DNA of 63,980 nucleotides, filler included. It is 7 parts of 7 records of this genome, joined end to end, with 100 filler letters (N's around TTAATTAATTAA, not from the genome) between each part and the next. Parts side by side here need not be neighbours in the genome. Positions count along the whole stretch, not along the records: positions 26,644 to 51,387 come from SRR31156797_18086; 6 more parts are not named here. One strand, given 5' to 3'. Positions 7,745 through 59,178 of the stretch are shown one piece after another (position 1 is the stretch's first letter; each line of letters opens with the position of its first letter). Under the pieces are notes generated by a model. It saw nothing but the letters and a program-made list of their open reading frames with translations. It made no database searches and was not told the DNA's origin. The translations under genes and the position numbers were made by a program.

Positions 7745-7844
7745 NNNNNNNNNNNNNNNNNNNNNNNNNNNNNNNNNNNNNNNNNNNNTTAATTAATTAA
7801 NNNNNNNNNNNNNNNNNNNNNNNNNNNNNNNNNNNNNNNNNNNN
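7745..7844. other. Artificial contig spacer N44-TTAATTAATTAA-N44 (also 13807-13906, 20408-20507, 26544-26643, 51388-51487, 58813-58912)
   Basis: Identical 100-bp spacer with six-frame stops occurs six times. Genes are truncated at the spacers and base composition changes across several of them. Confidence 0.98.
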
Positions 7845-13806: not shown

Positions 13807-13906
13807 NNNNNNNNNNNNNNNNNNNNNNNNNNNNNNNNNNNNNNNNNNNNTTAATTAATTAANNNNNNNNNNNNNNNNNNNNNNNNNNNNNNNNNNNNNN
13901 NNNNNN

Positions 13907-20185: not shown

Positions 20186-20638
20186 AGTAGATTTTATGTA
20201 ATGTTTTGGATGTTAAATGATTCAAATTACATAAAACCGATAACAAATCAAATAATGTAAAGTTTTTGCAAAAAAATGTTCGTATTCGTTCTACTTTAAA
20301 ATAATAACCTTTAGTCGATATTATACCTTAAAAAATCCTAAATTTGTGGTAATTAGTGGTTGCAAGAAAACTCCGTTTCTGATAAAGAAAGCTTCATTTT
20401 TGAGGCANNNNNNNNNNNNNNNNNNNNNNNNNNNNNNNNNNNNNNNNNNNNTTAATTAATTAANNNNNNNNNNNNNNNNNNNNNNNNNNNNNNNNNNNNN
20501 NNNNNNNCAAGCCAAAACCAAACAGGGTTTTACAATTTAAAAAGTTTGCAAAAGTAACTTCCGTCTCAACTTCTGCCAAAAAATGACAGATTCTTAGTTG
20601 GAAGTTACTAAGGTGTCTAATCTGTTAATTAAACCTGG

Positions 20639-26543: not shown

Positions 26544-26783
26544 NNNNNNNNNNNNNNNNNNNNNNNNNNNNNNNNNNNNNNNNNNNNTTAATTAATTAAN
26601 NNNNNNNNNNNNNNNNNNNNNNNNNNNNNNNNNNNNNNNNNNNGGTAAATGTTAAGGATGAGGGAAGTATTTGCCTGTTTTTCAGCGGTAACGTTTGCAG
26701 CGTTTCACGCAAGCCTGATAGTTATCTGGCTGCAGAGAAATCGTAAAGCGCTATGCAAAAATCATCAGATGTGTACAATAATA

Positions 26784-43884: not shown

Positions 43885-43936
43885 AAACCATTTGCTACGA
43901 CTCCGCTCAGCAACCGTACTTCGACTCCGCTCAGCA
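43885..43936 (+). repeat. Tandem pair of C(T/A)CGACTCCGCTCAGC REP-like motifs
   Basis: AACCATTTGCTACGACTCCGCTCAGCAACCG TACTTCGACTCCGCTCAGCA. The first unit nearly equals the reverse complement of 50792-50823. Confidence 0.8.
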
Positions 43937-43982
43937 GCAATGCTAGCTTCTTTCAGCAACCTATAGTGAAATTAGTTAAGAA

Positions 43983-46974: not shown

Positions 46975-48930
46975 CTACTGAATAGCCTTACGCATTTTCA
47001 GAATATATTTTGAACGATCCAGGGGACTAATTCCCTTAAATGGCCTGATTACACCCTGTTCATCTACGCATGGTTGATAGGAATGAAGCCGTGTAGATAT
47101 TTTTGCCTTGCCACCGGAGCGAGAGCTCAATTGAATGGGATATTCCAATGATGTGGCTAACGGTAAAAGTCCGGTTAATGTAAATTTTCCATCATTCATT
47201 TCAGGACTCTCAAATGAACCTCTCATTTGGGTTATATCACCTGTAATAACTCCTAATAAATCTTCGGTGGCTGAAATTTTAAATTCCAAAACAGGCTCTA
47301 GTAAGGTTGTGCCAATATCTTTTAATCCCTCCATAATTCCCATTGGAGTAGCTATGATAAAATCACCCGGGCGAGAGTGAATTTCATGATCTTCTCCATC
47401 AATCAGGGTAATTTTAAGATCAGTAACTTCCCATCCCTTAATACCTTGCTTCAAAGCCTCAGGAATGGTTCTCTCCACCTCATTCTGATATTTACGGTGA
47501 ATTTTATCTACACTAACTTCAGATTTGTAAACGACTCCTTTTCCTGGTTCACCAGGTTCAATTCTGAATTTTACAACTGCCCAACAAGGCTTAGGCATGG
47601 TGTATTCAGCAAATCCATATCCTTCGGCAACGGGTTTCTCTTTATAAATGACAGTAGGATCTTCAAATTGAGCTTCGATGTTAAATCTGTCTTGCAAAAT
47701 GGATGTAAGCACTTCCATTTGTATCCAACCCATTACTTTCACATGTAATTCCTTATCCTCCTTGAGCCATTCAAAGCTAAGTTCGGGATTCTCAAGGGTT
47801 AAAAACTGCAATGCTTCTGCCAGCGCTATATAATCTTTATCCAAAGCAGGTTTTACCTGAACTGTAAGCAGTGGTGATTGCAATTTATTAGTGTCATTTT
47901 CATCCGAAGGAGCCTTTCCAAGCACATTGCCAACCTCAACCTCTTTAAGTCCATAAATATTGACTATATCGCCCTCATTTGCCATTTTTAGGTCTATAAT
48001 ATCTCCACCTCTGTTTTGTTTTAGCAAAGTAACTTTCTCCTCAATTTCTTTTGTGCTGTTTTTTATGAGATCGCGCGGTTGAATTTGTCCCTTTAGAATT
48101 TTGGCATATGTAATTAGTCCCTGGCCAGATTCATTAGTTACTCCGAATACCTTTGCAGAAAAAGGAGCATCATCATTGAAATTTGAATACGAAAGACCGA
48201 CAATATTTTGTAGCAATAAGTCAATACTTAATCCGGTTTTAGCACTTCCCAAAATAACAGGTGTTATTTTTGCCTTAATAATTGCTTGTTTCAGTGCCTC
48301 ATTAAGTACTTCAAAACTCGGTAATTCTCCTGATAGATATTTCTCAAGCACTTCATCATTTAGACTTGCAAGTGCTTCAATTATTTCTTCATTAAGATTC
48401 TCGCCGTGCCATAATAATTTCGAAGTTGCTTCGGCTGTTTCTTCTCCATCAATTTCGTTAAGCACAATTACATTTTCGCTAAACTGCTTTTCCAATTCAG
48501 ATATAACCAACTCACTATCAGCACCAACCCTGTCAACCTTGTTGATGAAAACAATAACAGGGATTCCTGCTTGCTGCAATACTTTCCATAAGGTTTCGGT
48601 ATGTGCCTGAATACCTTCCACTGCAGATATAACCAAAACAGCCACATCAATTACACCTAAAACTCGCTCTACTTCAGCAGAAAAATCAACATGACCTGGT
48701 GTGTCAATTAAGAAGATCTCAGTATTATCCCATTCAATGGTTGTATAAGCAGATTGCACAGAAATGCCTCTATTCTTTTCTACCGCTAATCGGTCTGTTT
48801 GGGCGGTTCCATCATCCACGCTTCCAAGGTTTTTGGTAGCTCCACTCACATACAATAGCTGCTCGGTAAGTGATGTTTTACCGGCATCAACGTGCGCTAA
48901 AATTCCTATGCTGATTTTTGGTTTATGCAT
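46975..48930 (-). CDS. TetM/TetO-like ribosomal protection protein-related translational GTPase
   Basis: AHVDAGKTSLTE, RGISV, DTPGHVDF and NKVD motifs; 651 aa from ATG 48930; RPP-like C-terminus DRSKY. Confidence 0.8.
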   Translation of the reverse strand: MHKPKISIGILAHVDAGKTSLTEQLLYVSGATKNLGSVDDGTAQTDRLAVEKNRGISVQSAYTTIEWDNTEIFLIDTPGHVDFSAEVERVLGVIDVAVLVISAVEGIQAHTETLWKVLQQAGIPVIVFINKVDRVGADSELVISELEKQFSENVIVLNEIDGEETAEATSKLLWHGENLNEEIIEALASLNDEVLEKYLSGELPSFEVLNEALKQAIIKAKITPVILGSAKTGLSIDLLLQNIVGLSYSNFNDDAPFSAKVFGVTNESGQGLITYAKILKGQIQPRDLIKNSTKEIEEKVTLLKQNRGGDIIDLKMANEGDIVNIYGLKEVEVGNVLGKAPSDENDTNKLQSPLLTVQVKPALDKDYIALAEALQFLTLENPELSFEWLKEDKELHVKVMGWIQMEVLTSILQDRFNIEAQFEDPTVIYKEKPVAEGYGFAEYTMPKPCWAVVKFRIEPGEPGKGVVYKSEVSVDKIHRKYQNEVERTIPEALKQGIKGWEVTDLKITLIDGEDHEIHSRPGDFIIATPMGIMEGLKDIGTTLLEPVLEFKISATEDLLGVITGDITQMRGSFESPEMNDGKFTLTGLLPLATSLEYPIQLSSRSGGKAKISTRLHSYQPCVDEQGVIRPFKGISPLDRSKYILKMRKAIQ

Positions 48931-49072
48931 TGTATAATAGAAAAGCTGTAAACTTAAGTATTTTGCAGCATTTATAAATATTAAAACCATTAAGTTATTA
49001 TGTTTGAAAAAGCATAAGCTAAAATTTTTATATTGGTTTACCACAATACAACAACCATAAAAATTAAAGCTT

Positions 49073-50155
49073 ATGCCACGTAAAATTAATGAAAATTCAT
49101 TTGAAGGTCAATCTATCTTTATTGGAATAGATGTGCACAAAAAGAGTTGGAAAGTGAACATACTTGGAAAACATTACGAACACAAAGCATTTAGTCAGGA
49201 TCCTGATCCTACAATTTTAGCTAGTTATGTGAAAAAGAATTTTCCTGGTGCTGAGTTTCATGCGGTATATGAAGCAGGATTTAGCGGATTTGAAGCATGT
49301 CGATCACTTAATAATTTAGGGATTAATTGTATGGTTATTCATCCAGCAGATGTGCCTACAAGTTCTAAAGAAAGACTGCAAAAGACAGATAAAATAGATA
49401 GCCGTAAACTTGCGCGAGCACTCAGAAGTGGTGAACTTGAAGCAATCCATATTCCTGCAAAAGAGTTAGAAGCGAATAGAGCTCTAGTTCGGCAACGATT
49501 TAGAATTGTAAAAGATATTAGTAGGATAAAAAACAGACTTAAATCATTACTTTTTCAATTTGATATTTCAATTCCTAATGAATTTACAGATTATCAGAGT
49601 AGATACTGGTCAAAGACCTATACAAACTGGCTTAAAGAACTAACTATCAAACATGAATCACTAAAACAAACTATTAATAATTATGTGAAAATTGGTGAAA
49701 TATTACGATCAGAACTTTTAACTATTAATAAGCAAATAAGACAATTATCTCGCTCACAACTATATGAACACAACCATAATCTGTTACTAGGAATACCTGG
49801 TATAGGTACTATTGCTGCGATGATAATTTTAACAGAATTAGGAGATATTAAAAGATTTAAACGGATAGATGAGCTTTGTAGCTATGTTGGATTAATTCCA
49901 AGAATGTACGGATCTGGAGATAAGATGCAAACAGGAAAGTTAACTAAAAGAGGAAGGAAAATTCTGAAAATAATATTAATTGAAGCCTCTTGGATTGCAA
50001 TTAGAAAAGATCCTGCATTAATGCTGAAATTCAACGAGCTTTCAGAGAAGATGAAAAAGAATAAAGCAATTATACGTATTGCAAAAAAGCTATTAAGCCG
50101 AATTAGATTCGTATTAGTCAATCAACAACCTTATGAATATAGTATAGTAGAATAA
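49073..50155 (+). CDS. IS110 family transposase/recombinase
   Basis: DEDD RuvC-like residues GIDVH, YEAG and KTDKIDS; C-terminal IPGIG...GLIP...SG with the catalytic Ser. Confidence 0.95.
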   Translation: MPRKINENSFEGQSIFIGIDVHKKSWKVNILGKHYEHKAFSQDPDPTILASYVKKNFPGAEFHAVYEAGFSGFEACRSLNNLGINCMVIHPADVPTSSKERLQKTDKIDSRKLARALRSGELEAIHIPAKELEANRALVRQRFRIVKDISRIKNRLKSLLFQFDISIPNEFTDYQSRYWSKTYTNWLKELTIKHESLKQTINNYVKIGEILRSELLTINKQIRQLSRSQLYEHNHNLLLGIPGIGTIAAMIILTELGDIKRFKRIDELCSYVGLIPRMYGSGDKMQTGKLTKRGRKILKIILIEASWIAIRKDPALMLKFNELSEKMKKNKAIIRIAKKLLSRIRFVLVNQQPYEYSIVE

Positions 50156-50182
50156 AATAAATTATTTCAAACCTTAAAAATT

Positions 50183-50335
50183 GGATGGAGGAATAAACGG
50201 TGTTTAATTTTTGCGGCACTCCAATATGAAGAAGACCGCTACATTAAGATTACGTCCTCCTTCCTCTTTAAAAAGAAAAGTACGTTGCAGCTATAATTAC
50301 AGACTGCTGATAGAAGATTGATTAAGAGGATTTTG
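50183..50335 (+). ncRNA. Candidate bridge/seek RNA of the IS110 element
   Basis: Two parallel stem-internal loop-stem modules carrying CATTAAGA (target match) and ATAGAAG (donor-junction match). Boundaries are approximate. Confidence 0.65.
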
Positions 50336-50520
50336 GAATAAATAATAAACGCTTTTTTTAAAAGCAAAAATAGGCCAATCAAAGAGTCTGTCAAGGTTAT
50401 ATAAACTTCGCTTCGCTCAGACCTTGACAAAATCTTTTATTGACCTAAAAGATGCATTGAGAAAAAAAGCTCGAAAAAAATAAAAGTTTTAGTCAACTTG
50501 CTTGGATTTCAACATAGAAG

Positions 50521-50582
50521 AAGTTAAGAGTAATTAAGAGCTCTCCTTTAACTTCTTAACTAATCGTAATGCCTTTATGGTT
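50521..50582. repeat. AACCATTAAG-family palindrome unit 1 (right part; left 10 bp at 48985-48994)
   Basis: AAGTTAAGAGTAATTAAGAGCTCTCCTTTAACTTCTTAACTAATCGTAATGCCTTTATGGTT aligns with units 2-4. Confidence 0.85.
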
Positions 50583-50607: not shown

Positions 50608-50702
50608 AACCATTAAGCACTTCGACAAGCTCAGCATAAACAGTGAAGAATAATTAAGGGCTATGCTTTAACTTCATAACTAACCTTAATGTCTTAATGG
50701 TT
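50608..50702. repeat. AACCATTAAG-family palindrome unit 2 with nested CTTCGACAAGCTCAGC
   Basis: AACCATTAAG[CACTTCGACAAGCTCAGCATAAA]CAGTGAAGAATAATTAAG...CTTAATGTCTTAATGGTT. Confidence 0.85.
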
Positions 50703-50729: not shown

Positions 50730-50823
50730 AACCATTAAGCAGTTAAGTATAATTAAGAGCTCTACTTTAGCTTATTAACTAACCTTAATATCGGTTGCTG
50801 AGCGAAGTCGTAGCATAATGGTT
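50730..50823. repeat. AACCATTAAG-family palindrome unit 3 with nested reverse GCTGAGCGAAGTCG
   Basis: AACCATTAAGCAGTTAAGTATAATTAAGAGCTC...CTTAATATC[GGTTGCTGAGCGAAGTCGTAGC]ATAATGGTT. Confidence 0.85.
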
Positions 50824-50832
50824 CAAAAACTA

Positions 50833-51249
50833 TCATTTAGGCAGTCTTCTAAAATACTCATTTACAAAAGGCTTTATTGTTTCGGTAATGTTCATAACAT
50901 TAAAGTTAATTAAAAGGCCTTGTGGTTTTTTCAACAACTTCATGTATGTAATCAACTGTGCCTCATGTATTGGCAAGGTCTGCTCAATCGCTTTCAACTC
51001 GACGATAACAGTGTCATTTACCAGTAAATCTAAGCATAATTCTGCCTCAATATCAATTGTGTCGTAAACTACAGGAACTTTTACCTGCTGCTTCACATCG
51101 TAACCCTTCTTTACTAATTCGTGTTTTAAACACTTCTCATATATACTTTCCAATAAACCTGGACCAAGTGCTTTATGAACTTTGATAGCCATTCCAGTAA
51201 TCTCATAGGATAGATGAGTCACATCAGTTTTTGTTTTGTAATAATCCAT
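50833..51249 (-). CDS. GxxExxY protein (PD-(D/E)XK-like nuclease fold)
   Basis: VHKALGPGLLESIY, DLLV...VELK, HEAQL..Y.K and GLLINF motifs. Confidence 0.93.
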   Translation of the reverse strand: MDYYKTKTDVTHLSYEITGMAIKVHKALGPGLLESIYEKCLKHELVKKGYDVKQQVKVPVVYDTIDIEAELCLDLLVNDTVIVELKAIEQTLPIHEAQLITYMKLLKKPQGLLINFNVMNITETIKPFVNEYFRRLPK

Positions 51250-51314: not shown

Positions 51315-51386
51315 AACTATTAAAAATATAAGAATAATAAAAATCATGAATGTAACTTCTTAACTAATCTTAATACCTTAATGGTT
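51315..51386. repeat. AACCATTAAG-family palindrome unit 4 (upstream of GxxExxY)
   Basis: AACTATTAAAAATATAAGAATAATAAAA...TAACTTCTTAACTAATCTTAATACCTTAATGGTT. Confidence 0.8.
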
Positions 51387-51487
51387 TNNNNNNNNNNNNN
51401 NNNNNNNNNNNNNNNNNNNNNNNNNNNNNNNTTAATTAATTAANNNNNNNNNNNNNNNNNNNNNNNNNNNNNNNNNNNNNNNNNNNN

Positions 51488-58812: not shown

Positions 58813-59178
58813 NNNNNNNNNNNNNNNNNNNNNNNNNNNNNNNNNNNNNNNNNNNNTTAATTAATTAANNNNNNNNNNNNNNNNNNNNNNNNNNNNNNNN
58901 NNNNNNNNNNNNTTAATGAAATGACTTGTTTTGAAGCAGTTTTAATATGTAATAGACTTTTTAATGCGCATTCCGAGTTTAAACACATTTCTGGCATTTA
59001 ATCATAATAATTCCACGAATACCCCACTCGCCTAAAACACTAACAAACATGCACTAACACGACTAAAAACAAATTTCATATTCTGCAATTTCATAGTATA
59101 AATTCGTCAATTTCTTTATCATCCAATTATATCTATATTATTATAGTTATTTTTGAGAGTTATATATCTAAATTGTCT

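Follow-up and report, generated by a model that had tools for sequence, protein, structure and literature searches.

What guides an insertion sequence to one particular spot of a genome is the question raised by the locus described here, in which an element of the IS110 family interrupts a palindromic intergenic repeat. The stretch of DNA analysed (the window) is 63,980 nucleotides (nt) long, and the contig that carries the element occupies positions 26644-51387 (SRR31156797_18086), with its right end falling within a further copy of the repeat. In this study, we consider, with a probability of roughly 0.87, that the element is an IS1111-type member of the IS110 family whose recombinase is steered by a bridge (seek) RNA from about 50187-50329, and that it is set in the conserved end of a hairpin repeat. 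A first-pass annotation of this DNA had described the element, its ends and the interrupted repeat; its interpretation was incomplete on mechanism, in that the choice of target appears to be written in a bridge/seek RNA of the 3' non-coding region, and the targeting of repeats similar to repetitive extragenic palindromic (REP) elements is therefore expected behaviour of the family (PMC11208160, PMC11187229, PMC1525189). The element consists of the following parts.

48995-50520, plus strand: insertion sequence of the IS110 family with IS1111 layout, 1526 base pairs (bp) with one terminal AAG counted in; 28 relatives define the ends; single copy in the window
48999-49009, plus strand: left sub-terminal inverted repeat, TATGTTTGAAA, starting 4 nt inside the end
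49073-50155, plus strand: transposase gene, 360 amino acids (aa), full length, with PF01548 and PF02371; relatives align over residues 1-360
50187-50261, plus strand: predicted target-binding module of the bridge RNA, with outer stem, 5' guide (50203-50210), inner stem-loop and 3' guide (50242-50248), from alignment and consensus fold
50263-50329, plus strand: predicted donor-binding module of the bridge RNA, with outer stem, 5' guide (50279-50283), inner stem-loop and 3' guide (50310-50316)
50371-50447, plus strand: second conserved long hairpin (inverted repeat I2) of the 3' non-coding region, between the bridge RNA and the right end
50507-50520, plus strand: right sub-terminal inverted repeat (50507-50516) with terminal GAAG, of which 50518-50520 is the core AAG

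The element was delimited to 48995-50520 because its end positions are conserved in relatives while the sequence outside them diverges. These relatives of the transposase, 28 in number, were obtained from a scan of genome contigs (9) and a scan of metagenome contigs (19), show 64-71% aa identity, and make up together with the window copy a set of 29 elements (loci L001-L033 are the 28 relatives and five re-fetches). Of the 29, 26 have a left end that could be placed and 25 a right end, contig ends having cut off the others, and beyond the ends the relatives are unrelated in sequence from locus to locus. All 25 visible left flanks, that of the window included, end in AG, 10 of them in AAG, and the right end reads CATAGAAG in 24 of 25 elements, L008 carrying a one-base variant. 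In the window, AAG is present at 48992-48994 in the left flank and at 50518-50520 in the right end, forming the core common to both junctions; a target duplication is absent, and what target and element end have in common is this short core (AG/AAG). The sub-terminal inverted repeats are matched at 10 of 11 nt, with one extra T on the left side, and they change together in the relatives, left GAAA or GCAA occurring with right TTTC or TTGC. The transposase gene is preceded by 78 nt and followed by 365 nt of non-coding sequence. The ends at base resolution, the AAG at both junctions and the sub-terminal repeats, all claimed in the first-pass annotation, were confirmed by the coordinates and by the relatives, and the element is an intact IS110-family member with IS1111 layout.

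The insertion site is one unit of a repeat, of which further copies stand to the right of the element.

48985-48994, plus strand: left 10 nt of the interrupted repeat unit, AACCATTAAG, matched by the opening 10 nt of both intact copies (50608 and 50730)
50521-50582, plus strand: right 62 nt of the interrupted unit, from repeat family D1 and the unit alignment
50608-50702, plus strand: intact repeat copy 2, with a 23-nt insert at the point equivalent to the junction of the insertion sequence
50730-50823, plus strand: intact repeat copy 3, with its insert elsewhere than the junction; the unoccupied site 50733-50747 fits both target guides
51330-51386, plus strand: right arm of a fourth repeat copy, cut by the contig end

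When 48994 is joined to 50521 by coordinates, a 72-nt palindromic unit is rebuilt which is identical at 62/72 positions to the copy at 50730-50823 and also at 62/72 to the copy at 50608-50702. In the alignment with the 50730 copy the junction is ungapped, the gaps being copy-specific inserts of 22-23 nt, one per intact copy, so that the colinear unit described earlier does hold, as does precise insertion into a palindromic repeat, which the unit alignment and the ends taken from relatives bear out. Insertion would thus have occurred 10 nt inside the unit and without target duplication. Repeats of three other genomes contain, at 5 places, an unbroken match with 0 mismatches to the 18-mer that spans the junction of the rebuilt unit. 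The repeat copies fold as palindromes, and the four in the window lie between genes. A different placement of the junctions has to be weighed at this point, since AAGTTA does stand at both of them as a 6-nt direct repeat (48992-48997 and 50521-50526), which could signify a target duplication or different ends if the junctions lay 3 nt further right. This would leave an empty unit that is 3 nt shorter than both neighbours and than the family motif in other genomes, and would displace the ends from the positions that 24-25 relatives share; in these, divergence of the flanks sets in immediately past CATAGAAG on the one side and immediately ahead of (G/T)T(A/G/T)TTATG on the other. We rejected the AAGTTA junctions, as they disagree with both neighbouring copies and with the repeat family elsewhere, and regard them as highly improbable.

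As a separate observation on these copies, the window contains 3 occurrences, at 50618-50640, 50790-50815 and 43886-43960, of a motif about 23 nt long (core ACTYCGCTCAGCA), against 0.07 expected. A looser version of it is found in repeat copy 2 at the exact point where the insertion sequence lies in copy 1, and in copy 3 in the mirror arm, while within another intergenic region (43886-43960) it stands twice in tandem. It also loosely resembles the apical loop of the second hairpin of the element (50371-50447).

The transposase places the element in its family. Pfam PF01548 and PF02371 match at 62 and 75 bits, in both cases exceeding the cut-off that Pfam sets, and NF033542, the NCBIfam model of IS110 RNA-guided transposases, reaches 212 bits against a cut-off of 140. 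Alignment to the solved transposases of IS621 and ISCro4 (55 bits for IS621) keeps the D, E, D..D and SG positions, and the motifs IGID, YEAG, KTDKID and YGSG align with the corresponding residues of both. We take the aligned D, E, D and D and the Ser of the SG motif to be catalytic, as in IS621. The translation also contains GLIPRMYGSG, an instance of the GL-P----S(t)G motif which, located in the C-terminal domain, is a trait of the IS1111 group (PMC11187229). By these profiles, the two alignments and the layout, the earlier assignment to IS110/IS1111 is sound. The exact transposase sequence had no match in a collection of 15 billion proteins.

The most conserved part of the non-coding sequence is the first 160 nt past the transposase stop codon. 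From 24 of the 29 sequences (L004, L015, L016, L018 and L019 were left out as near-duplicates of L003, L014, L006 and L017), RNAalifold produced a consensus fold of two modules, each made of a stem, an internal loop and a stem-loop. The pairs that RNAalifold placed between the two target guides were dropped because the targets are self-complementary repeats, and the 28 pairs kept are formed in 98.8% of cells, a share that drops to 37-62% on sliding the partners by 1-3 columns. Of these 28 pairs, six carry changes on both sides, a count reached in 1 of 500 shuffles. A single-sequence fold of the window RNA was no better than shuffles (z = -0.5), so that the support for the structure comes entirely from the alignment. 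We predict on these grounds that a two-loop bridge/seek RNA is encoded at 50187-50329. A sigma-70 promoter and terminator scan did no better than shuffles, sigma-70 being the wrong model for Bacteroidota. Among 401 genomes sampled from the phylum of G003, a genome that carries a relative (the phylum is taken as Bacteroidota), the 145-nt RNA region had a match only in G003 itself.

The second hairpin, further downstream, is also conserved. Its motif is present in 21 of the 29 elements (the window and 20 of the 28 relatives), with an invariant GTCAAGG...CCTTGAC top and a variable lower stem, and folding of 15 of the 21 motif-bearing sequences revealed compensatory changes at 12 of 21 pairs. It is absent from the sub-clade of L009, L017-L022 and L028, whose non-coding region is longer.

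How the two loops of the predicted RNA relate to the flanks and ends of the element carries the rest of the argument. In the target loop, the 3' guide (50242-50248, CATTAAG) equals the last 7 nt of the left flank, and so is complementary to the bottom strand, and the 5' guide (50203-50210) can pair with the right flank on its top strand. In the donor loop, the 3' guide (50310-50316, ATAGAAG) equals the right end of the element, and the 5' guide (50279-50283) is the pairing partner of left-end bases 1-5, in the window with the exception of base 1. Under the proposed mechanism, a DEDD/serine recombinase would be steered by the bridge (seek) RNA encoded just past its own gene, with the target loop reading the left and right flanks and the donor loop reading the right and left ends. 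The RNA would be made and bound by the recombinase, and the element would presumably have been formed into, and inserted as, a circle by recombination at the shared AG/AAG core.

The word of the left flank that appears in the target loop changes with the locus, being CATTAAG in the window, CGCAGAG in L005, CACGAAG in L006 and ACACAGAG in L009. Guide-flank statistics were computed on 27 non-redundant rows of the 29. At five variable positions the left guide matches its own flank at 5/5 in 14 of 20 loci, at 4/5 in five and at 3/5 in one (mean 4.65), compared with a mean of 2.6/5 over 328 cross pairs with a different guide, 4.9% of which reach 5/5. The right guide of 7 nt, with G-U allowed and at offsets of 0-3 nt from the core, reaches 7/7 in 14 of 19 loci, the remainder being 6/7 in two, 5/7 in one and 3/7 in two. 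The window guides score 5/5 on the left and 7/7 at offset 0 on the right of their own flanks, and none of the other 25 guide sets scores above 3/5 and 6/7 on these flanks. Full pairing of the donor guide with the five left-end bases is seen in 22 of 25 elements, and the guide tracks the variation among GTG, GTA and GTT.

Could the match of the window RNA to its flanks have arisen by chance, the protein alone recognising the hairpin repeat? The target is AT-rich and of low complexity, two G-U pairs are needed for the pairing on the right side, and the RNA is a predicted transcript, all of which leave some room for such a coincidence. The matches fall, however, in the same alignment columns in which the relatives match their own, different flanks, a rough estimate puts the probability of scoring both 5/5 and 7/7 at fixed positions at about 1 in 100,000 or below, and RNA guidance was demonstrated by experiment in other members of the family (PMC11187229, PMC11208160). 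We therefore hold a chance match to be very improbable.

With regard to the relatives themselves, most of them sit in tandem heptad-like arrays (CACAGAG, CACAAAG, CACGAAG, CGCAAAG), with the insertion point following the AG of one heptad, and their right guide matches the next heptad at a spacing that varies by 0-3 nt. Near-identical elements were also noticed at different heptad sites, namely L003/L004/L024/L025, L017/L018/L019 and L014/L015. The relatives insert beside assorted genes, such as a four-helix-bundle gene (L018) and a YraN gene (L027).

Several observations weigh against guidance of the element by this RNA, or against the element being a functional example of it. The right guide attains 7/7 at offset 0 in only 7 of 19 loci, offsets of +1 to +3 being needed in 7 of the 14 full matches; of the two loci at 3/7, L008 is mis-registered through its variant right end and L027 is unexplained. 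Of 326 right-guide cross pairs, 16% also reach 7/7, which results from most relatives targeting similar heptads, and the right side alone is therefore weak evidence outside the window. No Rfam family matches the RNA region at E<=1. The specificity for the repeat is argued from one insertion and from analogy with the relatives, and so should be taken as probable. Lastly, the left end begins with T (48995) in the window only, the relatives having G in 24/24, and the donor guide of the window would itself pair with G at this base, just as the identical guide of L010 pairs with it.

The last point bears on whether the element, as described, could be stranded, a relic of one arrival followed by decay of the left end and unable to excise or re-insert. 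That T is the sole base of the five which its own donor guide is unable to pair, mismatches with the donor guide are generally poorly tolerated in IS621 (PMC11208160), and a second copy was not found in the window, in two public collections or in the protein look-up. Set against this, a full-length transposase is encoded, in which the catalytic positions are preserved, the remaining guide and end positions are all intact, two relatives also show one donor mismatch each, and a single natural variant may be tolerated. This copy could be impaired, or a mismatch could be tolerated at this position, and one copy cannot decide between the two; on balance we consider a stranded element unlikely, though deserving of serious attention, and under the preferred reading of an RNA-guided IS1111-type element the copy may still be mobile.

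The site read by the RNA was then followed into other genomes, where the 15 nt in question would correspond to a terminal motif that is conserved in a family of hairpin repeats present in many Bacteroidota genomes. Among the 401 genomes sampled, an 18-nt terminal motif, with one mismatch allowed, is present in 23, and in five of these it is counted 14, 14, 7, 5 and 5 times, compared with 0-2 for the reversed control. The hits are often inverted pairs 40-46 nt apart, that is, hairpins. Counts of 15-mers open to pairing by both target guides are 25, 30, 10, 9 and 6 in the same five genomes against 2-4 in the control, and the commonest variant of these 15-mers has A where the window site has G, which gives a Watson-Crick pair there and one G-U fewer with the guide. 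Each genome with the repeat family thus offers several to tens of guide-compatible sites. Within the window, besides the unoccupied perfect site for both target guides at 50733-50747, two sites with one mismatch lie on the opposite strand in neighbouring copies. Again, in the assembled contigs of run X1, pieces of the repeat of 50-60 nt are found on four other long contigs (15.7-41.8 kb). These counts from 23 of 401 genomes and from X1 agree with the earlier view of a multi-copy Bacteroidota family, and the repeat, being short, palindromic, intergenic and multi-copy, is in these respects similar to REP elements and bacterial interspersed mosaic elements (BIMEs). Our literature search returned no paper that describes this repeat, or the targeting of REP-type repeats by members of the IS110 family in Bacteroidota; its coverage did not extend to the ISfinder target lists in the supplements of PMC11187229 and PMC11208160, which may include related elements.

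The clustering of repeat copies around the element could also be taken to mean that the repeats belong to the mobile unit, as arms of a composite element or of something similar to a miniature inverted-repeat transposable element (MITE), instead of being a pre-existing target of the host, and a MITE linked to an IS110-family element is indeed known for ISPpu9 (PMC12288879). By blastn, however, the repeat is present in none of the 28 relatives, and it is abundant in the five repeat-rich genomes, in which a search at E<=1e-20 returned no transposase relative; we consider it hardly credible that the repeats travel with the element. Use of the family as a multi-copy landing pad had been put forward in the first-pass annotation. 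It did not find support, as no second copy of the element was found in the window, in two public collections (best relative 71% aa), in the protein look-up reported above or in the five repeat-rich genomes. The genomes that carry relatives also hold one copy in each of five, these being draft assemblies, in which repeats tend to collapse. In X1, one contig of 24,744 nt covers the stretch with 0 differences and is not independent evidence, as the window probably stems from this run; none of the contigs joins 48994 to 50521 or the right end to the left end, and contigs cannot show absence. The element ends were covered by no other contig of X1, for which assembled contigs only were available.

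The repeat had further been described as associated with GxxExxY genes, one of which lies beside the element.

50836-51249, minus strand: GxxExxY / PD-(D/E)XK gene (PF13366, TIGR04256), flanked by repeat copies 3 and 4; context, outside the element

The association holds for this gene and for one other genome (G392), in which tandem copies of the repeat family (L036, 1255-1655; units of about 110-145 nt) were noticed just upstream of a GxxExxY gene with 63% identity to that of the window, followed by a stretch of N. No GxxExxY gene was found at the other 19 of the 20 repeat loci, nor at L001-L033. A general link was rejected, as it is confined to the window and 1 of 20 repeat loci elsewhere, and the association is anecdotal, being known from two genomes.

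Comparison with known systems brings the element close to the IS1111 elements that use seekRNAs (ISEc11, ISPa11, ISKpn4; Siddiquee et al. 2024, PMC11187229). It resembles them in the DEDD transposase with a GL-P----SG motif, in sub-terminal inverted repeats with short terminal extensions, in a long non-coding region that lies downstream of the gene for the transposase, in the order of the guides, the top-strand match being 5' of the bottom-strand match, and in that each element or close group has its own target. Sub-terminal inverted repeats of IS1111 elements measure about 7-17 bp (PMC11208160). The transposase is 360 aa long here compared with the 330-350 aa given in PMC11187229, the placement in IS1111 being by layout and motif and not by tree, and the conserved RNA spans about 143 nt, with target and donor loops readable from the sequence, compared with 82-96 nt for purified seekRNAs (PMC11187229). 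The present element differs further from these in the extra conserved long hairpin past the RNA and in its Bacteroidota host. On the features compared, it would work like known RNA-guided IS110/IS1111 elements, all IS1111 traits examined having been found except the length of 360 aa.

IS621 (Durrant et al. 2024, PMC11208160; structures 8wt6 and others) is alike in having two internal loops and a left and right guide around a short core, its natural target is a REP element, and the transposases align. In IS621, by contrast, the RNA lies within the left end and precedes the transposase gene, whereas here it lies within the right end; the core of IS621 is CT, compared with AG/AAG here, and its sub-terminal repeats are only 2-3 bp (PMC11208160). 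The REP-targeting elements of Proteobacteria (ISPpu9, ISPpu10, ISPa11, ISPsy8, ISRm19/22; Tobes and Pareja 2006, PMC1525189) likewise insert site-specifically at a fixed distance inside a palindromic extragenic repeat, and ISPpu9 has an AG dinucleotide at both ends, as here (PMC12288879). They belong to another phylum, and their target is a GC-rich REP of about 35 nt, whereas the repeat here is unrelated, AT-rich and about 60-95 nt long; KT2440 holds 7 copies of ISPpu9 (PMC12288879), compared with the one copy known here. REP elements were described as targets of IS110/IS1111 elements in 2003-2006 (PMC1525189; references in PMC11208160), and RNA guidance was demonstrated in 2024 (PMC11208160, PMC11187229).

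The locus thus appears to provide a clean natural case of bridge/seek-RNA targeting outside Proteobacteria and Firmicutes, in which the system was worked out, with both guide loops readable in sequence and natural reprogramming visible across 28 relatives. A conserved hairpin repeat of Bacteroidota was identified along with it, and the clade would represent a compact pair of recombinase and RNA with an AT-rich natural target. While the known mechanism is unchanged, the strictness of the right-guide register is raised as a question. Speculatively, and with considerable doubt, the conserved terminal 15-18 nt of the repeat may be a shared cross-species landing pad for RNA-guided insertion sequences, the guide fitting the family consensus better than the local copy; the right-guide register of the clade, most members of which sit on CAC(A/G)(A/G)AG heptads with a spacing of 0-3 nt, may be more flexible than the fixed one of IS621; and the second hairpin may be an extra functional module.

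A few observations concern the window and samples at large. The window consists of contigs strung together through spacers of the form N44-TTAATTAATTAA-N44 at 7745-7844, 13807-13906, 20408-20507, 26544-26643, 51388-51487 and 58813-58912, and its pieces range from 27% to 60% G+C, and so may not all stem from one organism. Run X3 gave no match to the element stretch. In run X2, a soil metagenome, a contig of 151 nt is identical to 49989-50139, in the 3' end of the transposase gene, alongside weaker pieces; an unrelated sample may therefore harbour a very close relative of the element, although this material is too slight to build on. To the left, the element lies in the upstream region of a translational GTPase gene (46978-48930, minus strand), the start of which is 64 nt from the left end of the element, and whose best match is the NCBI tetracycline ribosomal-protection model at 552 bits, below its cut-off of 775.

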